The notes: a model not told the origin generated them from the letters alone. Positions 164-11,480 are shown, counted from the first letter of the stretch. The stretch: 11,607 nt of DNA from Oligoflexales bacterium (GCA_045105515.1 JBGCDR010000115.1:1-11607), one strand, 5' to 3'. Numbers and translations are program-made.

Positions 164-751
164 TTATAATGCGATTATTTGAGATTCAGATTCTTTAATA
201 AAACACTCGTTGTGTTCCGAAAAGATCACAACACCCTTATTTTTTACGTGTTGCTTGATTCGGAAAGCTAAAAACTTCACTGCCTTTTGATCGAGACCAT
301 TTGTTGGCTCATCTAGAATCCACAAGGGGCACTCATCGATAAGAGTTGCTACTAAAAAAAGTTTCTTTATCTGCCCAAGAGACATCGCACGACATTTAAG
401 ATCCAAAATCTTATTAAGCTCTAATTCTTCGTTTGCTGCTTCCGAATACTTTAACAGATCGTTTTTCCGTATGCTTGCAATGTATTCCAAAAAAGTTCTG
501 CCACGAATGAATGGGTATGTTGTTGGTTTGTCTGGCAAAAAACTACGGTTCTTATTTAAATCATCAAATGAATAGGTGACCGTTCCTTCGAATTTTTGAT
601 CTAGACCACTTAAAATTTTTAGAAGAGTACTTTTACCTGCCCCATTTTTTCCATTCAATGCATAGGAACCAGACTCAAACGCATGGTTAAAGTTGTGGAT
701 AATCCTTTTGGATCCAAATGATTTACTGATACCTTGTGCTGAAACAATCAA
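164..751 (-). CDS. ABC transporter ATP-binding subunit (exporter type, ~195 aa)
   Basis: Walker A GKNGAGKST, signature variant MSLGQ, Walker B WILDEP, H-loop SEH. The TTG at 751 (LIVSAQGISKSFG) lies just after the permease stop at 756 and behind GGGGAC, so it is preferred over the ORF-track start at 814. Confidence 0.93.
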   Translation of the reverse strand: MIVSAQGISKSFGSKRIIHNFNHAFESGSYALNGKNGAGKSTLLKILSGLDQKFEGTVTYSFDDLNKNRSFLPDKPTTYPFIRGRTFLEYIASIRKNDLLKYSEAANEELELNKILDLKCRAMSLGQIKKLFLVATLIDECPLWILDEPTNGLDQKAVKFLAFRIKQHVKNKGVVIFSEHNECFIKESESQIIAL

Positions 752-755
752 TTTA

Positions 756-1754
756 TTATCGTCCCCATAAAAATAGTAGCAAGGCTGGCAATAATGCTCC
801 CAATAACCAAGCATGCGTAAATTTTAATATTCTAAGTGATAGACAAAGCATAAATACGATAAGAGCCACCAGCACAGCATAAATGTCCATCGCGACCATA
901 AAGTATCCAAGCATAAAGACTGGAATAGCTAGAATCATAAATGCGACTAAATCACTGTAAAAAACCTGGAAACGGGATGTAGGTAACATAGAAAAATAGT
1001 GCTTATATTGGTCATCTATATCGTGCATCCTCGTAACTAGCCGCGAAAAGTATGCCAACCCCCAGTACATCCCCACCGCATGGATCGAACCGAGTGAACT
1101 CTTGGTATATGGACTATTATAAAATATCAGATACCCAAGTGTCGCTAATAAGATATAATCCAAGCATATTTTGCCTTTTAATACAGCCAAAACTATCTGT
1201 AATCGCAAGATTATTGATGAGCTTGGGGTCGGTAAAAATTGAAATGACAACCCCCTACTCGCCTCCAATACCGGCAAGCAATGCTTATTTCCTAAATATA
1301 GGATGAGGATGGCTGTCAACGAAGCTGCAAAATCAATCAAGGTATACATGCAAAAGGCTGATAGGCTCTTAAGGAGTGGTGCTTTAGAACAAGATATAAA
1401 AAAACCTATCCAAGCAATCATGGGAATACTAACGGTAAAAAAGATCAGGCAGCGCAAGAGCGGGGCATAGAACCTGGGCAAAGGCAGAGTGTTAAGGAAC
1501 CCAATGATATTTTGATTTTTCGTAAAAATATCCGAGTGCAAAAGAGCAAATAATAAAAACACTAAATATACCTTAAACGATATATTTAAACTGCCTTCAG
1601 CGAGACAATTGCCTATATAACCAATATCTTGATTGGATAAAGTCGTGAGGATAAAAAGGCAAAACAAGTAGAAGATATTTCTTACTCTACTTGAAACTGC
1701 CTGATTTAATACAAGTAATTGTGTCCAAGACAAACTTCTTAAGAAGATTTTCAT
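756..1754 (-). CDS. Polytopic membrane protein, probable ABC exporter permease
   Basis: 332 aa with many hydrophobic segments. It sits directly upstream of the ATPase. Two 'LP..R' motifs (FLNTLPLPRF; YFSMLPTSRF) resemble those of ABC-2-like permease halves. Confidence 0.75.
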   Translation of the reverse strand: MKIFLRSLSWTQLLVLNQAVSSRVRNIFYLFCLFILTTLSNQDIGYIGNCLAEGSLNISFKVYLVFLLFALLHSDIFTKNQNIIGFLNTLPLPRFYAPLLRCLIFFTVSIPMIAWIGFFISCSKAPLLKSLSAFCMYTLIDFAASLTAILILYLGNKHCLPVLEASRGLSFQFLPTPSSSIILRLQIVLAVLKGKICLDYILLATLGYLIFYNSPYTKSSLGSIHAVGMYWGLAYFSRLVTRMHDIDDQYKHYFSMLPTSRFQVFYSDLVAFMILAIPVFMLGYFMVAMDIYAVLVALIVFMLCLSLRILKFTHAWLLGALLPALLLFLWGR

Positions 1755-1934
1755 CCAAACGGTGTCCCTTTTTCACTTTTTCCCTAGTAAGAATTATCCC
1801 TTGAATCCTTAAGAGGGTCGTTAGAAATCGCTTAGCGTGTGTATATTCTTTGCTAAGTGAAATGTAAACATGAAAGTACCCTCATTATTAGAGTTTGATG
1901 AGATTTATATTTTTTATTATTTTTTTAATATTGA

Positions 1935-1964
1935 TTGAATTTTTTTTTACACATTTTGTATCTT
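1935..1964 (+). promoter_or_regulatory. Candidate sigma70-type promoter for the precursor/operon
   Basis: TTGAAT (1935-1940), 18 nt spacer, TATCTT (1959-1964), in an AT-rich divergent intergenic region. Such matches arise easily in AT-rich DNA. Confidence 0.25.
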
Positions 1965-2035
1965 CCGCCCATCGTAAACAGATCATCGAATGTTGGACCA
2001 CATTGATGACAAACAACAGTATAAATGGAGTAAGT

Positions 2036-2113
2036 ATGTCTTTTGAAATCAACGTAATTGAGACAAGCGGACAAAATGCACAAACTGGATGTAACAGTTG
2101 TGGATGCCCCTAG
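2036..2113 (+). CDS. Putative RiPP precursor peptide, 25 aa, MSFEINVIETSGQNAQTGCNSCGCP
   Basis: ATG at 2036 with GGAG SD at 2027-2030. The C-terminal core is C-x-x-C-x-C-P. A hairpin terminator follows immediately, then the DUF692 operon. It is the 3' part of the ORF-track 1895..2113 call. Confidence 0.85.
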   Translation: MSFEINVIETSGQNAQTGCNSCGCP

Positions 2114-2115
2114 TT

Positions 2116-2146
2116 AAAATTAGCGGGGTGTCCCGCTAATTTTTCT
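2116..2146 (+). terminator. Intrinsic terminator/stabilising hairpin after the precursor
   Basis: Perfect 12-bp stem AAAATTAGCGGG (2116-2127), loop GTGT, CCCGCTAATTTT (2132-2143), with a short T tract. It starts 3 nt after the precursor stop. Confidence 0.85.
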
Positions 2147-2187
2147 CTAGATAACTTATTTCAACCTTAATACTGAGAATTGATCCA

Positions 2188-2724
2188 GTGATTATTGAGC
2201 AACTAAAGCAACAAAACCTTCATGAATACTGTGAGCTACAGCTGGCTATAGACTCAACAAGCTCGTTTATGGATTATGATGCAGATGAACGCATAGATAC
2301 ACTTCAGGACTTACTTAACTCGCGATTTAAAAATGGCAATTCGATCTTTCTGGTAGCGAAACAATCCAATCGCTTGGTGGGTTACGGTGAGATTCACGGC
2401 ATGAAAACAAAGAAGAAGAAACATGTTTGCTGGGCACTGGGTGGGTTCATCCCTTGCTTTCAAAGCCAAGGATTTGGTTCGAAAATGCTTTCAAGTATTT
2501 TAGATCATGCTGCAAAAAAATGGAGACGGCTTGATGTGACTGTGATGGATGGGAACATCAAATCGGTTAAGTTACTTAAGTCTTTCGGATTCCAAGAAGA
2601 AGGTAAAAGACATAAAGCCATCCATCATGATGGCAAGTACTACGATGAGATATACCTAGGGATAGATCTAAAAAAATGGAGACAAGGGCGTGTCAGCAAA
2701 AGCACGACAAAATCTATACGCTAA
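2188..2724 (+). CDS. GNAT family N-acetyltransferase
   Basis: Acetyl-CoA motif A QSQGFGSKML and the C-terminal motif N..SVKLLKSFGFQEEG...DGKYYDE. GTG start. Confidence 0.9.
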   Translation: MIIEQLKQQNLHEYCELQLAIDSTSSFMDYDADERIDTLQDLLNSRFKNGNSIFLVAKQSNRLVGYGEIHGMKTKKKKHVCWALGGFIPCFQSQGFGSKMLSSILDHAAKKWRRLDVTVMDGNIKSVKLLKSFGFQEEGKRHKAIHHDGKYYDEIYLGIDLKKWRQGRVSKSTTKSIR

Positions 2725-3502
2725 GCTTATCAATAGCAAAGAAGTTCGGATTCTATATAAAAATAGCTCACCTGAAGCCATCATGGCACAATTTGGGATT
2801 GGCCACACAGACTATGAGGCTATTTTTAGCTTTTTAAATCAAAAACAGCGAAGGTTTGATCGATCTGCACAACTAAACCTACGCAACAGGTGGTTTGGGG
2901 TTTTAGAGTGCCTTAGTAGCCTTGAAAAGTTCATGACTAAGCAAGAAATCGCATTAAATTGGCGAAAATTCATCAGAAATCTACCACTTGGGATCCCAAA
3001 AAACCCACACGCTGAGGCATTGGCTTTTATCGATTTTATGTTGCAAAATCATTCACCTGGCATACTCGCAAACGTCTTAAGGTATGAGAAAAATAAAAAT
3101 CAGGTTCTATTCTCTTTTTTAAATTCTGATTTTAAAAAAGCACAGTCATCATCTTATGAGCAATATGAGGACCTTAGCTACCCCTTCGTATTCCAAGGCT
3201 ACCTAATGCAAGATTTCAAATATGATTTCAGCAGCATTAACGATGGAAAGCTTGAAAGAAAAAATTCAACCGTTCTATTTGCCAAGAACCTTTCAGGTCC
3301 AGGGATCATCACTTTGAATGTAAATCGTGACTTGCAAGGACTTCTAATCAAACTAAATGGATTAAATAGCGTAGAAAAACTACTGCCTCTATACCCTGAG
3401 GTTGCTGCACATCAATTGGTTGGTACCTTGGAGACATTGAGTAAAATTGGAATACTAACCTTCCTAAAAGGGGGCAAAGATGAATGCAAGAAAAATTTCT
3501 AA
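2690..3502 (+). CDS. Probable MNIO partner protein with C-terminal RRE/winged-helix (DUF2063/MbnC/TglI-like role)
   Basis: Overlaps the DUF692 gene. It has a helical N-terminus, an 'EALAFIDF...LRYE' segment like DUF2063-type partners, and a C-terminal beta-strand + helix pattern (LLIKLNGLNSVEKL...LETLSKIGIL) typical of PqqD/RRE folds. The call rests on context plus pattern. Confidence 0.7.
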   Translation: MSAKARQNLYAKLINSKEVRILYKNSSPEAIMAQFGIGHTDYEAIFSFLNQKQRRFDRSAQLNLRNRWFGVLECLSSLEKFMTKQEIALNWRKFIRNLPLGIPKNPHAEALAFIDFMLQNHSPGILANVLRYEKNKNQVLFSFLNSDFKKAQSSSYEQYEDLSYPFVFQGYLMQDFKYDFSSINDGKLERKNSTVLFAKNLSGPGIITLNVNRDLQGLLIKLNGLNSVEKLLPLYPEVAAHQLVGTLETLSKIGILTFLKGGKDECKKNF

Positions 3503-4301
3503 GTTGGGGATAGGGCTTAGTTATATCCCTGATTTGCGAGCTGAGCTTTTGGCTCACCTCGACGAGATCGACTTTTTTGAGTTTTATTCCGAAAGCTTTT
3601 TCTATCCGAATTTTGATCCAATTCAAAAAAAGATAATTGCAGAAAAACCAATGGTTATGCATGGCTTAGATATGTCGCTTGGGGAGATTGTACCTGCAAA
3701 TCAGAAACATCAGAGCCAACTAGCCAAAGCTGTTAAGAATTATCAACCCAAATGGTTCAGTGATCATCTATGCATGACCAAATCTTCTGGAGAAGAAGTT
3801 GGGCATCTGATGCCCATTGAGTTCAATGACGAGGTTTTAGAAAACATTTGCAAAAAGATTACTGAAGTTTCAGAACTTTGTGATCTCCCTTTTCTCATCG
3901 AAAACATCACATATTATTACCAACTCCCTTTCGCTACCTATGGTGAATGCGAGTTTATAAGCAAGGTTGTTGAAAACTCTGATTGCGGAATCCTCTTGGA
4001 TGTCAATAATTTATACATCAATTCTGTAAATCATAGATACGACCCCTATAGCTTTATCGATCACTTACCCCATGAGCGGATAATTGAGGTTCACATAGCG
4101 GGTGGATCAAGAAAATTGGGCATGATGGTTGACACGCATGCAAACAAGATTCAAGCGGAAGTTTGGGCTTTACTAGAGTATGTTATGCGCCGCACTTCTG
4201 TAAAAGGGGTTGTTTTAGAACGAGATGCTAATATTCCTCCAATCAAGGATATCTTAGCTGAGCTTGCATACGCACGAGAGATTGCCAAGAGAACTTGTTA
4301 G
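3480..4301 (+). CDS. DUF692 family multinuclear non-heme iron-dependent oxidative enzyme (MNIO)
   Basis: Characteristic motifs: GIGL, HGLDMSLG, WFSDHLC, HLMP, FLIENI, LLDVNNLYINSVNH, EVHIAG, VDTH, VVLERD. 273 aa. SD GGGGG upstream. Confidence 0.95.
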   Translation: MNARKISKLGIGLSYIPDLRAELLAHLDEIDFFEFYSESFFYPNFDPIQKKIIAEKPMVMHGLDMSLGEIVPANQKHQSQLAKAVKNYQPKWFSDHLCMTKSSGEEVGHLMPIEFNDEVLENICKKITEVSELCDLPFLIENITYYYQLPFATYGECEFISKVVENSDCGILLDVNNLYINSVNHRYDPYSFIDHLPHERIIEVHIAGGSRKLGMMVDTHANKIQAEVWALLEYVMRRTSVKGVVLERDANIPPIKDILAELAYAREIAKRTC

Positions 4302-4309
4302 GAAAAAAG

Positions 4310-4876
4310 ATGGATCACACGTTAAAAGTTTCGCGATGCCTCGTCGTCGCTCATCCTGATGATGAAGTTATCTGGTTTGCTCCAGAATATTTTAACCTAA
4401 TTGTCATTGTATTTTTAGGGAGGGAAGACAAGCCTTGGATGGATCCTTGCCGGAAAAAGAGTCTGTTTGAGCATGACCTAGGCGATAAGATCCTCTGTTT
4501 GAATCTTATTGAATCTGGATTTTGGAAGGACGCCTCGAGAAGTAAAGAACATAGGTCAGCTTATGCCAAGACTCAAAGAGAACTAAAAGCAATTTTTAAT
4601 CGCTCCAGCTTTAACGAAATTTACACCCATGGCCCTGAAGGGGAATATGGGCATAGTGATCATACACTTGTCCATCAGGTTGTCAAAAAAGTGCTAAGAC
4701 CAGATCAAATGATGTATTACCCTGTGTCTCACACATCCAGATTATTTGACCTAGTACATAAAAGTGACACGGTACTGCGAAAAAGAATCATGCAAGTATA
4801 TAAGATGAATAAATGTTGGACTTGGAACGAAGATCATATTTTTAATGAAGAGATAAAGTATCGTGCAATTAAATAG
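4310..4876 (+). CDS. PIG-L/LmbE family metal-dependent de-N-acetylase
   Basis: AHPDDE motif and THGPEGEYGHSDH motif. ATG at 4310 behind AGGA is preferred to TTG 4295. Confidence 0.9.
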   Translation: MDHTLKVSRCLVVAHPDDEVIWFAPEYFNLIVIVFLGREDKPWMDPCRKKSLFEHDLGDKILCLNLIESGFWKDASRSKEHRSAYAKTQRELKAIFNRSSFNEIYTHGPEGEYGHSDHTLVHQVVKKVLRPDQMMYYPVSHTSRLFDLVHKSDTVLRKRIMQVYKMNKCWTWNEDHIFNEEIKYRAIK

Positions 4877-5579
4877 GCATAATAAAAAAATCAGGACCCT
4901 ACTAGGACTTGCCTCTATTCCATCTAGAAAGGAGATGATGCGGCAAACCTTGAAATCCATATCATCTCAAGTCGACCACATCGTGGTTTACCTCAACAGA
5001 TATGATCATGTTCCCGATTTTTTACGCTCTGATAAGATAAGTATCTTTGGCATTGATGGACCCGATTTGGGTGATGTAGGTAAGTTTTATGCCATTGAGC
5101 ACTGTAATGCTGAATTTTTTCTGACGATTGATGATGATATCATCTACCCACACAACTACGTTGCTGCTTTAATCGAAAGTTATCAAAATTGGGATGCAGA
5201 CACTATTATTTGTGTCCATGGAAATAAGATCCCCAAAAAAATAACTGCTTCCTATTATCAGGAGAAAGTAGGGCTGCACTTTTCATCCATTCTTGACAAG
5301 GACACCCTAGTAGATGTGCCAGGTACGGGGACTATGATCATCCAACCTAAGATGCATAGAATCTCGTTAGATTTATTTTCAAGACCAAATATGTCGGATA
5401 TCTGGTTGTACAAATACGCTCGTCTGAACAAGAAGCGAGTTGTGGCTATTAAACGGCAAAGTTTATGGCTAAAAGAGCAAGAGCATCAAGTGTGGAGTGA
5501 TTCGATCTATTCACAGCATAAATCTAATGATGGGTTTCAAATCAACATCATTAACAGATACCTAGATTACCTTGGATGA
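4863..5579 (+). CDS. GT-A fold (GT2-like) glycosyltransferase
   Basis: N-terminal LASIPSR...TLKSISSQVD, GDVGKF, the DxD motif in TIDDDIIYP, GTGT, and MSDIW. Confidence 0.85.
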   Translation: MQLNRHNKKIRTLLGLASIPSRKEMMRQTLKSISSQVDHIVVYLNRYDHVPDFLRSDKISIFGIDGPDLGDVGKFYAIEHCNAEFFLTIDDDIIYPHNYVAALIESYQNWDADTIICVHGNKIPKKITASYYQEKVGLHFSSILDKDTLVDVPGTGTMIIQPKMHRISLDLFSRPNMSDIWLYKYARLNKKRVVAIKRQSLWLKEQEHQVWSDSIYSQHKSNDGFQINIINRYLDYLG

Positions 5580-5583
5580 CAAT

Positions 5584-6345
5584 ATGGATCAAATAACGAA
5601 TAATTTTTCTGAAACTGGATACCTTATACTAAAGAATTTCCTCTCTGAAGGTGAATTTACTTCACTTAAACGAGAGGTAGAAAATTATGAGGCTAAGGCA
5701 CAAGAAAAGAATATGTGGATGAACTATTATGAAGCAGTGGAAGGTAGTAAACTACTAAACCGGATAGAAAACCTATCACCCTACAGTCGAGTTATTCATA
5801 ATTTAACGAGGGATAAAAGACTTCACGCTTTGATGACAAGCCTGACAGGCTCCCATTATTCCCTTCTTAAGGATAAAATAAACTTTAAAAGACCTGGGGG
5901 GAGAGGTTTTAAGCCTCATCAAGATGGTGCGGCCTTCTCTAAATTCACTCGCAAAGAAATCTTAACGGTTCTTATTCCGATTGATCATTTCACGAATAGT
6001 AATGGGTGTTTTGAGATCTATAATAGTAATAGGATTCCGAGGTTAATGGAACATCAAAATGGATCCTTAGAGTTTATGAAACTAGAGGAAAATAGGTGGG
6101 ATAAGGTGTTTCTAAAGCAAAGAGACATTATGATTTTTAGCGGTCGCTTAATACACTGTTCCAAGAATAATTGTGATTCAATGCCTCGCAGGGTCTGCTT
6201 CTTCACATACAATGATCTAAAAGATGGCAATCTCTTCGATGAATACCTGAACTATAAGCGCACTCATTTTCCACCTGAGCTAGAACGACAAGGTCAATCA
6301 AACCTCAATCACTGGACCTCCCATTTATCTTGCAAGATCCTTTAG
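5584..6345 (+). CDS. PhyH-family Fe(II)/2-oxoglutarate dioxygenase (PhnY-like sequence signature)
   Basis: GYLILKNFLS, KDKINFKRPGGRGFKPHQD (HxD), a distal His in LIHCS, and the 2OG-binding Arg in PRR. The start could be TTG 5572 or ATG 5584. Confidence 0.9.
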   Translation: MDQITNNFSETGYLILKNFLSEGEFTSLKREVENYEAKAQEKNMWMNYYEAVEGSKLLNRIENLSPYSRVIHNLTRDKRLHALMTSLTGSHYSLLKDKINFKRPGGRGFKPHQDGAAFSKFTRKEILTVLIPIDHFTNSNGCFEIYNSNRIPRLMEHQNGSLEFMKLEENRWDKVFLKQRDIMIFSGRLIHCSKNNCDSMPRRVCFFTYNDLKDGNLFDEYLNYKRTHFPPELERQGQSNLNHWTSHLSCKIL

Positions 6346-6355
6346 GAGAAAAGCT

Positions 6356-7174
6356 ATGTATCTATTACTTGGTCATAAAAGCGTAGACTGCATTCTTTCA
6401 AAAGTATTGCAAAGGTTTAAAGGGGTAAATCGATGGGAAAGGTACCTTCATCTACTAGCAACTCATTCTTATTTACAAAATCTAGAAGGTACCATTTCTA
6501 AAAAACCAGTTTTTTCAGACATCAAGGGTCTAAAAACTGTCGCCCCGAAGTATTATGACACAGTATACAAGGATTTTTCTAAAAATAGCAAGGTGAACAC
6601 CGAGCGACTTTGCAATGGGTTTTTCGACGATGTGATTTTGGAGCTATCAAAACGAAGTGTCGATATTCATCAAACATTTAGCTTTCTTGTTCGTTATATC
6701 ATCATCCACTCCATGCAGCAGTACACCAAGGGAACTACTGAAGATTCACTGGGTTTAGTGATAATAAATGGTCAGGATCATCTTGAGAAAGAGGATTACA
6801 TAGAATTGATGGTGCATCAAATGAATCATATGATCATGTTTTTAGATGATAAGCTCAACCCCCAAGTTTCTAATGAAAACAAATGTCTCCCTATAACCTT
6901 GCCGATCAATACAGCAGCAGGCACAAGAAGCATGTCATTTTATGTCCTCCTTCACAGTTTTATGGTAGGTGTCGAGGTTTTGCTGTTTAGAAAAAAATTT
7001 GCCACAGAATCTTTCCACGGGGCTTTTCATGGGTCAACCTCTCAACTTACCTCAAGATGCATGCATGCCTTTCACCTTCTTGCTGATAAACGGGATTATT
7101 TACTACCAAGAGGTGTATGGATTTTAGAAGCATATAGAGAACAGTTAAGCTATTTTCAGGAGCACTTTTTGTGA
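6356..7174 (+). CDS. aKG-HExxH-like protein (putative peptide beta-hydroxylase), HQxxH variant
   Basis: Pattern GTT...LGLVIIN...DYIELMVHQMNHMIMF...LLHS matches the RiPP-associated HExxH domain layout (ExxxHExxH plus a distal His). SD AGGAG at 6344-6348. Confidence 0.65.
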   Translation: MYLLLGHKSVDCILSKVLQRFKGVNRWERYLHLLATHSYLQNLEGTISKKPVFSDIKGLKTVAPKYYDTVYKDFSKNSKVNTERLCNGFFDDVILELSKRSVDIHQTFSFLVRYIIIHSMQQYTKGTTEDSLGLVIINGQDHLEKEDYIELMVHQMNHMIMFLDDKLNPQVSNENKCLPITLPINTAAGTRSMSFYVLLHSFMVGVEVLLFRKKFATESFHGAFHGSTSQLTSRCMHAFHLLADKRDYLLPRGVWILEAYREQLSYFQEHFL

Positions 7175-7971
7175 TAGATAGAAATTTTTTTATGACAATC
7201 TACCGACAGATAAACCAACATAGTTATGAAGCCTTACTTGAAAACAGGCTAAGTGAGTTAGCGGTCTTTCAAGCTGATGCCAAGGATGAGGAGCTTCATC
7301 AAGTTTTAAAGTATCATGGCTTTTTACTCTTGAAGTTTTCTGTAAAAGTATCCTTAGATACAGTGCGAGCTAGGCTTACAAACTTATTAGGTGAGCCGGT
7401 TAGGGATAGTGGCGTAGAGGATTCCCTTCACACTACCATAGCTTCAGTCAATCAAGGACGGTATTTTTCCAATTCCTGTTACACTCAGCCTTTGCATATG
7501 GATGACGCCCATTGTCATCAGATACCAAGGCTGATTACCCTGCATTGTGTAAGGCCTGCTAATAAGGGGGGGGTGTCAACCTTATTAAAATTTGCAGACA
7601 TCGAAGAGCAAATTTTACCATCTTATGCTGATGTTTTCGAAAAGCTTTTTGACAAAAACTGCCTGAGAATAAGAGGGATGAAAGGTGAGCTAAACCGACC
7701 ACTTCTGGAACACCTCGAAGAGGATTACTTAGGAATGGCTTTTCCGGCAATTCTCGAAGGTCTTAGTGCGGATGCCAGAATTGAGCAACTATATCGTGAG
7801 GTTTACAGCTACATCCATAATCCAAAAAATCAGATTAGATTTTCAATGAAGCCAAATGAGGTCCTTATTATAGATAACTTTCGTACCTTTCATGGCCGGA
7901 CAAGTTTTCCAGCAAGCTCTTCTCGCTTGCTCTATCGAACTTGTTTCCCTGCCAACACCTTCCGGAAATAG
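7171..7971 (+). CDS. TauD/TfdA (clavaminate synthase-like) Fe(II)/2OG dioxygenase
   Basis: PLHMDD (HxD), LHCVRPANKGGVSTL, IIDNFRTFHGRTSF and RLLYR. GTGA start/stop overlap with the upstream gene. Confidence 0.92.
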   Translation: MIDRNFFMTIYRQINQHSYEALLENRLSELAVFQADAKDEELHQVLKYHGFLLLKFSVKVSLDTVRARLTNLLGEPVRDSGVEDSLHTTIASVNQGRYFSNSCYTQPLHMDDAHCHQIPRLITLHCVRPANKGGVSTLLKFADIEEQILPSYADVFEKLFDKNCLRIRGMKGELNRPLLEHLEEDYLGMAFPAILEGLSADARIEQLYREVYSYIHNPKNQIRFSMKPNEVLIIDNFRTFHGRTSFPASSSRLLYRTCFPANTFRK

Positions 7972-7985
7972 GATAAATAAACGGT

Positions 7986-9148
7986 ATGGTGGGTTTATTG
8001 ATTTCATCTTTTTGTCTAGCCTGTGCAGATTTTGCGATTAATTTTTTTCTACAGTTATGGATCAATGATTTCTTTGGCAACCCTGGCTTGGTTTCCTTAT
8101 TTTTTTCAGGATCCTTGCTTGTAAGGATCATACTCATCCAATTTTATCCGATGATTTTAAGGTCCGTCTCAGTCAGACAATCCTTATTGCTTGTTCCGTG
8201 CATTCATATAATGCTCATGGCATTATCATATTTTTTTAGGTTAATGCCGTATAAGACCACTTTTTTTGCGTTGTTCTTAGTTGCAAATACTTGCTTTCAA
8301 TCTGCGAGTAGGGTGACGTTGCAAGCAGCAGTTGACAAGATCATACCTTCAAGCAAAATTGGTCAATTTTTCAAGAGATATCAACTTGCATCTTCTTTAG
8401 CAGCATTTACCGGACCACTTTTTCTTTTGACCTTTGATGTGAAAGTCGATAATTATTATAATTTTGTGGCATGTATGATTTTTTTATACGGAATCGCTTT
8501 TTTGCTTTTGAAGGGTATCAAGATTTCCCCAAAAACTGATTATAAGGCTCCTAAAAACAAACCTACCACAAGCACTCCCAGGTTCTCCTCAGTGTTGCTG
8601 CGCAAAAAATATTTTATGCAATCATTTTGCTTAATATAGCACTTATCCCGATCCATTTGTTTATTCCTATATGTAGGTACCACAACCCAAATATGGGTGC
8701 TAACTACCTTGTCTTTTTACAAGTGACCTTTGCTTTTGGTGGTATAATTCCTGGGCTTTATATGAAAACATTAGCTGAAAGGCGTAGATCTTTTAGCACA
8801 CAAGTTGGTTCTCGATATTTGTGTTTAGCTTTCTTCTCTTTACTACTTACTGACCTTGGTCTATCGCCACTCAGCTACTTAAGTTTGCTCGGTATAGGCG
8901 TCTGCATAGGTTTTATTAATGTACTTCTACAGACATACTTAGTGGAGATCCTTCCTTCTCATATTCAGCATCAGGTGTTTTGTAACATTGAAAACGTTAT
9001 ACTTATCACACGGATGATTTCATTTTTGATTGTAGGCTTTTTCTTAACATCGCTAGCACCAGCCTTGCATTACAGCCTAAGTGCGGCACTCTTGATTTCT
9101 ACAGCCGCATGGTTGTTTTATTATAGGAGAACCTTAGATTATGTATGA
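7986..9148 (+). pseudogene. MFS transporter split by a single-base frameshift (or a sequencing error)
   Basis: ORFs 7986..8639 and 8627..9148 look like the N- and C-halves of a 12-TM MFS exporter. Adding one A to the A6 run at 8604-8609 gives LLRKKIFYAIILLNIALIP and a 387-aa continuous ORF. Confidence 0.75.
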
Positions 9149-9680
9149 CATTCCAGATTTCAAGGTCCCCAATGAGTCCATGAGAGGGACTGCTCGAGTT
9201 CGCTCCTCTCCAACCAATTTAGCTACGTGGGTAACAGATAACCTGAAAAGCGATTCAAAATCCTTTAGTGTCCTAGATTTTGGGGCCGGACACGGTTTCG
9301 ATGCAGCGTATTTAAATAGTAAAGGGTTTCATTGCGAGGGATGGGACCCCGTATTTTCAAGTACTCTAGCCCCAAGGAAAGAGCATTATGATTTAGTGTT
9401 ACTAGCTTATGTTTTAAATGTGATACCTTCTCTTAACTTACGCAAAAAAGTTTTACTTCAGGCATGGCATTACAGTCTTACCCACCTTCTGATTGCGGTC
9501 AGGATGAATACCGTCATGAGACCGACCCAAAAATACCAAGATGGAGTCATCACCTCGATTGGGGCTTTTCAAAAAGTTTACACCCCTATAGAAATCAAGG
9601 AATGGTGTGATCAAATCCTTGATAGTAAAGGGACTTTTGTGGGTAAGAATACTTTAATATATAGAAAAAACAGCTGTTAA
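9141..9680 (+). CDS. Class I SAM-dependent methyltransferase
   Basis: VLDFGAGHG motif I, GWDP, YDLVLLAYVLNVI, and DGVITSIGAFQKVY. It resembles one domain of the 'DNA phosphorothioation-associated putative methyltransferase' family. Confidence 0.85.
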   Translation: MYDIPDFKVPNESMRGTARVRSSPTNLATWVTDNLKSDSKSFSVLDFGAGHGFDAAYLNSKGFHCEGWDPVFSSTLAPRKEHYDLVLLAYVLNVIPSLNLRKKVLLQAWHYSLTHLLIAVRMNTVMRPTQKYQDGVITSIGAFQKVYTPIEIKEWCDQILDSKGTFVGKNTLIYRKNSC

Positions 9681-9945
9681 AGAGCACTTTGATTCATTGG
9701 CACAAGCACCAAATACAAAGTCCAAACTTGCGCTGACCCAAATAAAATAAAAAATATTCTTATTGGAAGATGATGACAGAAGCTTGCAGAAGTTGCTCGA
9801 ACGTAATGCCCTTTTTCCGCAAGATCTCATTGCATCCAAAAATATCCTGTCCTCTGACAAAAATCTATCGGCATCGAAAAACTAAGCTGCCCATTTGTAG
9901 CAGTGATGTAAGCCGTTACAAAATTCATCTGAAACAATCGCCGAT

Positions 9946-10119
9946 CTACATCATTCCACCCATGCCACCTTATTATGGAGCACTAAGTCACCTTTGGTAT
10001 TGCTTAGTATCAGTTTGTATTTACTGGTACTTTTTACTTGAAACATACTCATCGATTTCCGCTTTATTGGTACCTTTTGGTACTCTTGGGTACAAAAATC
10101 GTGTCGTTTTCGTGTCGGT
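9946..10119. repeat. Direct repeat copy 1; att-like site containing the groEL 3' tip
   Basis: About 87% identical (hand alignment, ~23 differences) to 10557-10731. Positions 9969-9946 on the minus strand read GGT GGC ATG GGT GGA ATG ATG TAG (GGMGGMM*). Confidence 0.9.
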
Positions 10120-10212
10120 ATTTACCATGGCATGCATCACTGAGATAATGACACCTTTTTTCCTATCCAAAAAACTTTTCTTAAGAAATTAAAATCAGAC
10201 CAAGGAAAATTC

Positions 10213-10542
10213 ATGAAACTTATCATTTCAATTTTGTGCTTATCACTAATTGCATGCGGTTCACCAAGCACCGAAACAACTGATAAAACCTCTAATCAAA
10301 ACCAAGTCACACCGAAAACTCAAACAGAAGATGAAAAATCGAAACCCAACTCTTCATCAATTTCCATAGATCATGATGGCTTTTATATACATAAGGAGCA
10401 CAAACTAGCCAGCCCAATCTATGAATTTTTTGATGGTGATTATAGATCAATAGAAATTGTTGGCTCAAATCAAGATTGCATATTAGCTGAAACAATCGAG
10501 GGAGAGTTTCACTTACTAAACTCTTCGACTGTAATCCTATGA
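10213..10542 (+). CDS. Small lipoprotein of unknown function (possibly C-terminally truncated)
   Basis: Signal peptide MKLIISILCLSLIA-C with a lipobox, followed by a low-complexity S/T/Q/K tether. SD AAGGA upstream. The stop is 15 nt from repeat copy 2. Confidence 0.75.
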   Translation: MKLIISILCLSLIACGSPSTETTDKTSNQNQVTPKTQTEDEKSKPNSSSISIDHDGFYIHKEHKLASPIYEFFDGDYRSIEIVGSNQDCILAETIEGEFHLLNSSTVIL

Positions 10543-10556
10543 CCATCAAGATCTAA

Positions 10557-10731
10557 TTACATCATACCACCCATGCCGCCCTTATTTGTGGTCACTAAAC
10601 CACCATTGGTATTGCTTGGTATCAGCTTGTATTTACTGGTACTTTTCACTTTAATCACACTCATCAATTTCCGCTTTATTGGTATCTTTAGGTACTCCTG
10701 GGTACAGAAATCGTGTCGTTTTCGTGTCGGT
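10557..10731. repeat. Direct repeat copy 2; att-like site containing the groEL 3' tip
   Basis: Positions 10580-10557 on the minus strand read GGC GGC ATG GGT GGT ATG ATG TAA (GGMGGMM*). It has internal GGTA(C/T) repeats and a tandem CGTGTCG-TTTT-CGTGTCG. Confidence 0.9.
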
Positions 10732-10946
10732 TTATTGGTTCCAAAGAGAGCTTTCAATCCTAAGAATACTTCATTTCGGGATGCATGGGCAGATGTAGCA
10801 AAGTCATCAGAGGTTCCCCGTTTAACTCGGGGTAAACTCTGTCGAAAGATCTCACATTTTTTCCTGTCACCACCACGCCGCCAGGCGGTAAAGTGGTCCC
10901 CTTCAAGTCCCTCTTTATCACCTCGACTGTAGTGGAGAGGTCTCCT

Positions 10947-11480
10947 TCAAATACGCTTAGCCATCTTCTCAAAAAACTCAATCAACCTCTTAGCCCTCTC
11001 ACTATTACTAGGCCCTGGCTCCAAATGAGCACTGATGCTCTCCAGAAAAGTATCTTCATCAAGAAACTCTACTAACTTTTTACTCAGATAATCAGCTACA
11101 CTTGCTGGAGCATTTTGTATCGATTCAAAGGATAGCATTCCATCAAGCAAAGTCACAACATCTTCAATATCATGACTGAGCCTAAAATCACCTGTTCCTC
11201 TACCTAAGTAGGCTTCAAACTTAGAAGCAACAAAATACGGTGGACTAAAGATCTTAATAACAGTCCCTGAAGGCAACTTCACATCCATCGCCTCCCTAAT
11301 CCCCTCTTTGTACCACTTGTTAGAAAAACCAATGATATTCTCATCAGTAGGCATTACATCAACGGTGACTCCGTTTATTGTCCACCTGCAAATTGGATCT
11401 CCAGCTTCTTGGGAGTTAACGAAGCCTTTTTCTCTTAATTTTGCTTCTAACTTTCCATATTCTGAATAATTACTGGCAAG
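10947..11480 (-). pseudogene. 5'-truncated nucleotidyltransferase-fold protein (AbiEii/type IV TA toxin-like)
   Basis: The frame extends upstream of ATG 11354 as SEYGKLEAKLREKGF..GDPICRWTINGVTVDVMPTDENIIGFSNKWY...KFEAYLGRG..D...SHDIED. It hits an in-frame stop at 11499-11501 with no start codon. The expected N-terminal GG and T-x-D-x-D catalytic motifs are absent. Confidence 0.65.

Follow-up and report, generated by a model that had tools for sequence, protein, structure and literature searches.

Does a 25-residue peptide gene followed by a tightly packed row of enzyme and transporter genes encode a biosynthetic pathway, and for what kind of product? The question is raised by JBGCDR010000115.1, a stretch of 11,607 bases (the window) that makes up one whole contig (C115) of the 6.29-Mb, 461-contig genome of an Oligoflexales bacterium. 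The initial annotation of this DNA had proposed a cluster for a peptide made on the ribosome and then modified after translation (RiPP), built around an oxidative enzyme that depends on multinuclear non-heme iron (MNIO, DUF692). Our analysis supports this interpretation at the genomic level: the genes co-occur elsewhere, the precursor is conserved, and no such cluster was found in the literature searched. It is reasonably likely that MNIO-dependent RiPP clusters with the pathway proposed below form a conserved but rare family and that the window represents one of its members.

The precursor gene encodes MSFEINVIETSGQNAQTGCNSCGCP and is preceded by GGAG 8 nt upstream of the start codon. The peptide begins MSFEINVIETS and lacks Lys. 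It has no hydrophobic signal sequence, DUF2282 domain or Cys-Lys/EGKCG-type repeats, and no Pfam or NCBIfam match. A genome-wide search found a single copy of the CNSxxCP small open reading frame (ORF) in the 6.29-Mb genome. In 13 of the 14 loci with upstream DNA, a small ORF ends CNS[VCFT][GAT]CP right at the stop codon, and the same C-terminal motif adjoins homologous enzymes in 12 loci besides the window, a recurrence beyond what chance would give. The small ORF of the 14th locus (L047) reads ...DDEVIEEMLCNTAY, with the end LCNTAY. What stays constant is thus Leu/x-Cys-Asn-Ser/Thr. Of the Cys residues, the first alone is kept in all variants, and Asn is equally invariant (14/14 precursors). 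Precursors span 25-41 residues across loci and have an acidic/hydrophobic leader (IEIIEE-like) in which alternating Ile/Val and Glu are abundant, for example MDLNIEIIEESVSSVEVL-CNSVGCP.

Codon comparisons separate the core from the leader. Among 10 loci, compared as 45 non-independent pairs, the seven core codons carry 125 synonymous and 38 non-synonymous differences, and the 18 leader-side codons carry 211 and 221 in the same non-independent pairs. The core counts indicate that the core is protein-coding and constrained. Judged by its codons, the 7-residue core is under purifying selection. A core of about 7-10 residues had been expected initially, and the conserved precursor indeed has a 7-residue core framed by invariant residues, CNSxxCP. 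A precursor with a leader and a conserved core thus lies beside a partner gene and modifying enzymes, which is the arrangement of a RiPP cluster as read from sequence; binding of the leader is predicted.

The precursor stop codon and the start of the next gene, a GCN5-related N-acetyltransferase (GNAT), are separated by 74 nt that contain a hairpin. Its 12-bp stem is followed by a T-run, and its folding energy of -20.7 kcal/mol (z -5.9) was matched by none of 200 shuffled sequences. Hairpins with different sequences occur at the same place in all three other loci folded (z -2.7 to -5.5). A consensus terminator scan of the window did not list the hairpin. Behind the precursor, 11 ORFs run in the same direction on the + strand with consecutive gaps of -35 to +14 nt, which agrees with the overlapping or at most 15-nt spacing described initially. 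The partner and MNIO genes, for example, overlap by 23 nt. Every gene named in the initial annotation was recovered in its place by Pfam and NCBIfam scans and by ORF reading.

The cluster is not unique to the genome of the window, as the same gene set with a CNSxxCP-type precursor is found in relatives. A scan of species-representative genomes for the MNIO identified Legionella drozanskii and Fluoribacter gormanii, at 45-47% identity. A third relative lies in G010 (locus L016), a genome of the window's own family. Both Legionellaceae records and G010 contain the small ORF, the hairpin, the GNAT, a 274-280-aa partner homologue (21-23% identity) and the MNIO. Downstream of the MNIO, the two Legionellaceae records have, in order, PhyH, (HQxxH), TauD, a 568-570-aa ATP-binding cassette (ABC) exporter and a 416-417-aa membrane protein, and the cluster ends with an ABC ATPase, a PIG-L deacetylase and a glycosyltransferase (GT). 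The 416-417-aa protein shows a faint DUF6136 match in L014 only.

Across the family, GNAT, partner, PhyH, TauD, PIG-L, GT and ABC ATPase genes recur at about 22-47% identity and in two gene orders. PIG-L and GT directly follow the MNIO in the window, L034 and L046, and stand at the operon end, after the ABC genes, in Legionellaceae. These low identities and differing orders indicate that the gene association has been kept through long divergence and rearrangement. The tailoring genes, which the initial annotation took to belong with this MNIO clade, therefore do recur with it. As predicted from the genes, the family is made up of two or three Fe(II)/2-oxoglutarate-type oxygenases, a KfiA-like GT with PIG-L, a GNAT and export/ABC genes. 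One locus, L047, keeps the precursor, partner, MNIO, HQxxH, TauD, ABC and GNAT genes and has no PIG-L, GT or PhyH in 14 kb.

The distribution is patchy. With the GT as marker, the cluster was found in 8 of 203 scored Legionellaceae species (3 more were not scored), six of them beyond the first two records. The marker was found in 1 of 16 genomes of the window's family and in 2 of 95 of its order. The second match in the order, that of G022 (34% identity), was rejected as a member: the short contig encodes an unrelated, ordinary GT2 fusion of 651 aa. A profile of the partner matched 3 of 131 genomes of the window's phylum (G000, G010 and one weak match), and 3 of 400 in an even sample of the class of L. 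drozanskii, including L. drozanskii itself. The partner-profile match in G017 (1.8e-9) lies beside a 31%-identical MNIO and was treated as another cluster type. G450 and G489, from the Gammaproteobacteria sample, both carry the cluster. A metagenome scan added five more contigs with it, one at 60.6% GC.

The MNIO matches PF05114 with 268.1 bits (cut-off 25) over positions 2-262 of 263. Scores against the NCBIfam subfamily models, in bits/cut-off, are 225.6/310 for BufB (NF050167), 208.5/360 for HvfB (NF003818), 127.1/400 for ApyH, 59.8/600 for ChrH and 47.2/325 for MbnB (TIGR04159). The two highest-scoring models, BufB and HvfB, both describe Cys-modifying enzymes. The nearest solved structure is the HvfB-like 3bww (4.3e-44); TglH is distant (9.1e-20). 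H61, H96, E141, D174, N177, H205, D218, H220 and E247 are invariant in 7/7 clade members and sit in motifs common to 3bww (HGL, SDH, EN.xYY, LDxNN, HIAG, VDTH and LERD). From the MbnB and TglH structures, we take these residues to be iron ligands. In a quick maximum-likelihood IQ-TREE run with 131 MNIOs, all 13 with verified cluster context fall into one clade of 63 rows (Shimodaira-Hasegawa-like approximate likelihood ratio test, SH-aLRT, 96). The clade also takes in proteins from Photorhabdus, Xenorhabdus, Luteibacter and Xanthomonas oryzae.

MNIOs of Bacillus megaplasmids (42.7% identity) were considered as family members and rejected, as they belong to a different cluster and fall outside the clade. 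This cluster is found on Bacillus plasmids of about 500 kb. In the Bacillus albus plasmid NZ_CP040345.1 (L039, 2180-9085) it comprises an ABC transporter, a carrier protein, two 44-aa ORFs, an S8 peptidase, the DUF692 protein and two hypothetical proteins. The genome of the window contains two further MNIO genes (C449 11611-12390 and C357 1424-2200). They are 28-29% identical to the MNIO of the window, have higher PF05114 scores and are probably ordinary bufferin-type loci.

The partner could not be placed by sequence. No Pfam family was found in any of 8 homologues, and DUF2063 was unmatched even at E values up to 1. A word-based homologue search returned the partner itself alone, a search with an alignment returned 4 proteins, and a profile search of PDB sequences returned nothing relevant. 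Its AlphaFold2 (AF2) model has a mean predicted local distance difference test (pLDDT) score of 78. The top Foldseek matches of this model are TglHI (8hi7_A, 7.2e-6; 8hci_A, 1.2e-5), followed by NGO1945 (3dee, 1.4e-4; TM score 0.73 on the target), and beyond these nothing else in the Foldseek search was convincing. The MbnC chain 7fc0_C appeared at rank 17 (E 0.45).

A model of the MNIO-partner complex reached an interface score (ipSAE) of 0.86, compared to 0.00 for the best control. The runs share at least 84% of contacts, and the partner has a pLDDT of at least 80 in them. A score of 0.86 is reached by 116 of 157 solved complexes and by 2 of 215 mismatched pairs. Because the TglHI and MbnBC complexes have been solved, resemblance to them may account for this result. 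With this reservation, the complex model supports binding of the partner to the MNIO. PMC12452194, in its accessible part, describes a PME-type 2 partner without a DUF2063 signature, with a fold related to NGO1945/TglI and a gene beside that of the MNIO. By its modeled fold, the partner in the window is such a PME-type 2 MNIO partner. The commonest gene order in the same part of that paper is the reverse of that in the window, where the partner precedes the MNIO.

Against 1.84 billion representative proteins, the partner profile gave 119 matches with E no higher than 1e-3, of which 75 reach 1e-10 and 17 reach 1e-30; as judged by this search, the partner family is small. One of the 30 representatives examined stands for 13 clustered sequences, of which 11 are named and which represent at least eight species of Photorhabdus, and the cluster of another has a member from an uncultured bacterium. 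The Photorhabdus partner members lie on contigs of 191,946 and 196,390 bases, sizes that match the contigs of P0021 and P0029, two members of the MNIO clade. The partner-MNIO pair therefore exists in Photorhabdus. On the basis of this pair, the cluster family is probably shared with Photorhabdus.

The tailoring enzymes differ in how closely they can be assigned. The GNAT is the first gene after the precursor in L014, L015, L016, L027, L029, L030, L032, L036 and L037, and sits elsewhere in L034, L035 and L047. No GNAT was found in L046 (G450), which has a class I/II pyridoxal phosphate (PLP) aminotransferase inside the cluster (3013-4110, 2.6e-45). In methanobactin clusters the aminotransferase MbnN caps the N-terminal amine. 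By analogy, an aminotransferase in place of the GNAT fits capping of the N-terminal amine.

PIG-L and GT genes are adjacent in every locus that has them (9 of the 12 loci with enough DNA). The PIG-L motifs A19-H20-P21-D22-D23-E24 (AHPDDE) and H120-x-D122-H123 (HxDH), which we take to be the zinc/catalytic motifs of this family, are invariant in 9/9 homologues. The PIG-L profile matches MshB weakly (0.03), and MshB accounts for its sole matches among PDB sequences. In the Pfam and NCBIfam scans the GT gave weak matches as a GT-A glycosyltransferase. The family profile of the GT matches residues 302-527 of heparosan synthase B (2.5e-46) and KfiA (1.2e-25), a domain that is presumably CAZy GT45. 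D90-D91-D92 (DDD) is invariant in 9/9 homologues. The protein was thus correctly called a glycosyltransferase in the initial annotation, but it is KfiA/heparosan-synthase-like by profile and not a generic GT2. Its sequence makes it a probable N-acetylglucosamine (GlcNAc) transferase, with donor and acceptor predicted.

The initial annotation counted four non-heme iron enzymes. Three of them, MNIO, PhyH and TauD, were confirmed, and the fourth, the HQxxH protein, is assigned on weak sequence and fold matches. PhyH contains HQD and a later His, and its homologues in 12 other loci are 32-39% identical. TauD contains HMD and a later His, with homologues in 11 other loci. Searches of PDB sequences with PhyH, TauD and GNAT gave distant, uninformative matches. 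The HQxxH protein scores 18.9 bits against TIGR04267 (cut-off 40), and 6 of 8 homologues match this model weakly. Its motif had been read as HExxH-like. The distant likeness to that family holds, but the motif is HQxxH in 8/8 homologues, and H154, Q155, H158, D165, H200 and H225 are invariant in all eight. A profile search of PDB sequences returned nothing for it. The AF2 model (pLDDT 75, two regions under 50) has chains of the ChlB HExxH oxygenase 8s5f as its top four Foldseek matches, all weak (E 8.5e-3 to 1.3e-2, TM 0.34-0.36, 135-145 columns); SjiH is also among its best, weak, fold matches.

The two last functions of the operon are not conserved across the family, in which other exporters and non-homologous methyltransferases take the place of the major facilitator superfamily (MFS) transporter and the methyltransferase. 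Such methyltransferases adjoin the cluster in L016 and L034. The methyltransferase of the window also matches the N-terminal part of TIGR04096 (7.6e-30, under the cut-off), and its gene overlaps the MFS end by 8 nt. An MFS transporter is present as first described, but in two overlapping ORFs in different frames. The frame change lies beside an A6 run (8590-8640). The split is unchanged in the 10,372-nt contig of each of three sequencing runs of one study, which is possibly the source of the window DNA, and no indel relative to the window was found in the MFS region of these contigs. The change may represent a true frameshift, with a pseudogene or split transporter as the result, and not an error of assembly. 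A second transporter is formed by the divergent ABC genes. The ATPase is 32-39% identical to the ABC ATPase within the Legionellaceae clusters, and its nearest NCBIfam models are exporter or ‘protection’ ATPases, all under their cut-offs.

The analysis shows a conserved gene set, a core under constraint, the fold of the partner and catalytic motifs that are intact. We infer the following chemistry. The partner would bind the leader and present the core to the MNIO. The MNIO would then oxidize the first of the invariant Cys residues and probably the second one as well. Since the enzyme scores nearest to the Cys-modifying BufB and HvfB, the MNIO product would most likely be a sulfur-nitrogen heterocycle of the thiooxazole (or oxazolone/thioamide) type. 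PhyH, TauD and the HQxxH protein may hydroxylate core side chains, with Asn, Pro and Val as candidates. The GT would place GlcNAc on the invariant Ser or on a new hydroxyl, and PIG-L would trim it to glucosamine. The GNAT may cap the free amine of the new N-terminus or that of the sugar. In the copy of the window, the methyltransferase would add a methyl group. The MFS or ABC proteins would export the product or protect the producer. The predicted product is a small exported methanobactin-like metal binder or antibiotic. Two Cys-derived S,N units four residues apart would resemble the metal site of methanobactin.

Several observations weigh against this pathway or parts of it. Pfam and NCBIfam scans found no leader protease in the window. 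Next to the copies examined there is neither a receptor for metal uptake nor a gene of metal homeostasis, and the ABC ATPase/membrane protein pair and the mobile carriage described below fit a self-protected antibiotic at least as well as a metallophore. The MNIO is under the curated cut-off of every named subfamily model, and MNIOs also perform non-Cys chemistry (accessible parts of PMC12636437, PMC13060819 and PMC11002830). The assignment of the HQxxH protein is weak in both sequence and fold. PIG-L and GT were not found in L047 or in the available parts of L035 and L036. Finally, the split MFS gene and high-copy repeats at the contig ends mean that the copy in the window may be impaired.

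The MNIO might carry out other chemistry at Cys-Asn-Ser, for example beta-hydroxylation, N-C(alpha) cleavage at Asn that leaves a C-terminal amide, a cross-link or a ChrH-like backbone rearrangement. MNIOs that hydroxylate Asp or cleave at Asn have been reported (PMC13060819 and PMC11002830, in the parts accessible), the Asn of the core is as invariant as the Cys, and the enzyme forms its own clade and misses all five named subfamily cut-offs. However, its two best models are Cys-modifying, its nearest structure is HvfB-like, and only the first Cys is kept in every precursor variant. We consider such chemistry rather unlikely.

Doubts about the copy in the window could go further, to a decaying, non-functional remnant in a genome rich in insertion sequences (IS). 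The frame split of the MFS stands in the contigs of three runs, the repeats that form the two ends of the contig recur in the assembly, one at 66 contig ends and the other at 30, and within the phylum the cluster occurs sporadically, as the partner profile indicates. A remnant is nevertheless decidedly unlikely. The ten other genes are all open and full length with intact catalytic motifs, and the second transporter, the ABC pair, is intact. The composition of the window equals that of its genome (GC 38.2% vs 38.3%), with a tetranucleotide distance of rank 34 among 96 contigs of similar size.

The sugar enzymes could instead be bystanders. In this case PIG-L, GT and perhaps GNAT and the methyltransferase would serve an envelope glycan, and the RiPP pathway would consist of the precursor, partner, MNIO and oxygenases. 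L047 keeps the cluster without PIG-L, GT and PhyH, KfiA and heparosan synthase are polysaccharide enzymes, and the methyltransferases are non-orthologous between clusters. Against this stands the recurrence of the PIG-L/GT pair, which is always adjacent and is found within the operon at two different positions. Its start and stop codons overlap those of the MNIO and PhyH genes in the window, and no other polysaccharide genes lie nearby in the window or the annotated loci. A bystander role is improbable. Least probable of all is a scaffold role for the peptide as in the 3-thiaglutamate/pearlin pathway, with release of an amino-sugar small molecule such as an acetyl-Cys-glucosamine-type thiol of mycothiol-like logic: an invariant Cys accompanied by a GlcNAc-transferase-like GT, PIG-L and GNAT would suit it, as would the closest fold match of the partner, TglI of a scaffold pathway, and the weak MshB matches of PIG-L, but no PEARL-type ligase, Cys ligase or releasing protease was found in the window or the annotated loci, the GT is KfiA-like and not of the MshA/BshA family as we know it, and conservation extends to all five fixed positions of the 7-residue core rather than to a single residue.

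The preferred reading, an MNIO-dependent RiPP pathway with sugar tailoring, can be compared with known systems. The window system works like other MNIO-partner RiPP pathways and falls outside the bufferin/captophorin, methanobactin, pearlin and HExxH clusters. It resembles bufferins, oxazolin and fontiphorin (‘captophorins’) in its best MNIO models (BufB and HvfB) and its Cys-containing substrate; the accessible part of PMC13097082 places 3bww in the BufB/HvfB-type captophorin group. The fold of the DUF2063 (PME-type 1) partners (3dee) also resembles that of the partner in the window. However, the MNIO scores are under the cut-offs of 310 and 360, the partner has no DUF2063 signature (0/8 homologues) and precedes the MNIO, and the 25-aa precursor lacks a signal peptide, DUF2282 and EGKCG repeats. 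DoxX is also absent. The large tailoring set of the window is not mentioned for captophorin clusters in the accessible parts of PMC12452194 and PMC13097082, and a text search of the former part found no mention of GNAT, glycosyl or PhyH.

Methanobactin clusters contain MbnA, MbnB and MbnC with the aminotransferase MbnN and the MATE exporter MbnM. The window system shares with them a very short leader-dependent precursor, spaced Cys in a small core, an MNIO with a partner and dedicated exporters, among them the MatE of L034, and one relative adds the PLP aminotransferase of L046. It differs in the low score against the MbnB model (47.2/325 bits) and in the weak fold match to MbnC (rank 17). No TonB receptor or MbnPH-like genes were found in the window or the neighborhoods examined. 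To our knowledge, methanobactin clusters are without hydroxylases, glycosyltransferase, deacetylase and GNAT.

The likeness to TglHI lies in the partner. Its best structural match is 8hi7_A, and, like TglI as described in the accessible part of PMC12452194, it is PME-type 2-like with no Pfam signature. The MNIO is closer to 3bww than to TglH (4.3e-44 vs 9.1e-20), and the Cys is internal, not C-terminally appended. Neither a PEARL ligase nor a releasing protease was found among the 16 window proteins scanned or in the annotated loci. Clusters with an MNIO and an alpha-ketoglutarate (alpha-KG)-HExxH enzyme (biphenomycin-like bpm, pfl/pos and nitrilobacillin pes) likewise combine an MNIO with an HExxH-family protein. 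According to the accessible parts of PMC12636437 and PMC13060819, their HExxH enzymes hydroxylate Gln, Asp, His or Pro, and no GlcNAc-transferase/deacetylase pair is mentioned for those clusters in the same parts. Their MNIOs act on Tyr, Phe or Asp, not on Cys-rich cores. The window motif is HQxxH and misses TIGR04267 (18.9/40 bits), and the precursors are unrelated.

The initial annotation called the cluster undescribed. Our literature search, with supplementary data sets and MIBiG outside its scope, found no cluster of the same architecture. No paper was found on the precursor motif, the gene combination or such an MNIO cluster in Legionellaceae or Photorhabdus, and supplements may list the clade unnamed. 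On this evidence, the family is new but the type of system is a known one, and the biology is not new in kind. A more far-reaching reading, which we hold to be speculative and unlikely, is a new natural-product class: a 7-residue core with MNIO-made sulfur heterocycles, multiple hydroxyls and a free-amine glucosamine, which travels on integrative/conjugative elements between the host-associated Legionellaceae, Bdellovibrionota lineage and Photorhabdus/Xenorhabdus and serves as a metal-scavenging or antimicrobial weapon in hosts or prey. No report was found of these three modifications combined in one RiPP. The bolder form of this class would be a ribosomal route to a mycothiol-like amino-sugar thiol.

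MNIO enzymes are a very active frontier of RiPP enzymology, and each newly opened subfamily has so far yielded new chemistry. The present family is compact, with a fixed 7-residue core, a partner without signature and an MNIO clade outside all named subfamilies. Its tailoring is unusual, as a GlcNAc-transferase/deacetylase pair would leave a free amino sugar on the peptide, in addition to the work of three 2-oxoglutarate-type oxygenases. Mobile carriage in Legionellaceae and presence in Photorhabdus suggest a role in host-associated or competitive life. The system is small, so heterologous reconstitution should be straightforward, and it is a good target for genome mining.

Mobile genes are found beside the Legionellaceae clusters. 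These include integrases in L014 and L030, genes for a relaxase, TraM, a ParA-like ATPase and transposases (rve integrase core, HTH_Tnp_1) in L015, genes for ArdA, SSB and an ISL3 transposase in L032, and a DUF927 protein gene in L029. The high-GC metagenome contig carries an IS481 transposase. Both the patchy occurrence of the cluster and its transfer between phyla agree with carriage on mobile elements. About 1 kb upstream of the G010 cluster, L016 encodes a U-box-domain protein (5165-5938, 4e-9) with a eukaryote-like E3-ligase fold, which suggests a host-associated way of life.

Some loci carry accessory genes of other kinds. Besides two Cupin_8/JmjC oxygenases and a second TauD, L034 has a MatE exporter, a methyltransferase and a LuxR regulator (16266-20542). 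In this locus about 10 kb separate the MNIO from the precursor, which is encoded on the opposite strand. In L035, the 60.6%-GC contig, a gene for a 973-aa LanM-like protein (6000-8921; DUF4135, 7.3e-73) stands directly before a precursor ending CLCNSVTCP, which hints at a lanthionine-forming variant of the same core. The accessory genes of L046, L035 and L034 fit a peptide that is worked on at its N-terminus and side chains after leader removal.

The features of the window are collected in Table 1. A promoter scan of the window gave 36 promoter-like matches, compared to a mean of 35.5 in shuffled sequences. There is no excess, and a promoter was therefore not assigned in the divergent intergenic region. 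The 332-aa membrane protein had no Pfam family in the Pfam scan. It was compared with the DUF6136-like 413-419-aa proteins found at the same position elsewhere, and homology is not claimed, since the hhalign probability was 0.3.

Table 1. Annotated features of the 11,607-base window, with positions counted from its first base.
Feature	Position	Strand	Basis or remark
ABC transporter ATP-binding protein, 216 aa	164..814	-	PF00005 2.1e-18; divergent from biosynthetic operon
Polytopic membrane protein, 332 aa, presumably the permease that works with the ATPase	756..1754	-	overlaps ATPase gene by 59 nt
Intergenic region of the divergent units, presumably with the promoters of both	1755..2035	.	flanked by the two divergently oriented start codons
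Precursor peptide gene, 25 aa, C-terminus CNSCGCP	2036..2113	+	ORF reading, motif recurrence
Stem-loop then T-run, directly 3' of precursor stop	inner stem 2116..2143	+	attenuator or partial terminator
GNAT acetyltransferase, 178 aa	2188..2724	+	PF13420 5.2e-14
MNIO partner, 270 aa, DUF2063/TglI-like fold with C-terminal beta-sheet/helix domain	2690..3502	+	
MNIO (DUF692) enzyme, 273 aa	3480..4301	+	PF05114 9e-80
PIG-L/LmbE-type zinc deacetylase, 193 aa	4295..4876	+	PF02585 34.2 bits, cut-off 28.2
KfiA/heparosan-synthase-like GT-A glycosyltransferase, 238 aa, probable GlcNAc transferase	4863..5579	+	family profile
PhyH-family Fe(II)/2-oxoglutarate oxygenase, 257 aa	5572..6345	+	PF05721 9.5e-18
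HQxxH protein, 272 aa, distantly related to alpha-KG-HExxH peptide hydroxylases	6356..7174	+	TIGR04267 1.2e-3
TauD/TfdA-family Fe(II)/2-oxoglutarate oxygenase, 266 aa	7171..7971	+	PF02668 3.5e-25
MFS transporter N-terminal half, 217 aa	7986..8639	+	PF07690 positions 1-209, 2.9e-7, under cut-off
MFS transporter C-terminal half, 173 aa, other frame	8627..9148	+	TIGR00900 positions 226-363, 6.3e-8; PF07690 positions 233-331
S-adenosylmethionine (SAM)-dependent methyltransferase, 179 aa, last gene of the operon	9141..9680	+	PF13489 1.9e-7

Both ends of the contig (1-140 and 11465-11607) are copies of repeats. The left repeat is found as 136-143 nt at 66 contig ends and the right one at 30. Read depth is about 660-10,000 at the repeat ends and 11-39 over the cluster, a difference of about 60-260 times. 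The end repeats are probably an expanded IS or miniature inverted-repeat transposable element (MITE) that fragments the assembly and brackets the cluster. Downstream of the operon, four ORFs without family match occupy 9770-11354. One of them (10213-10542) has a lipoprotein-like N-terminus (…LSLIACGS), and a 135-aa ORF lies on the - strand at 10947-11354. Read depth doubles at 10450-10836, and contigs break at 10682-10713.

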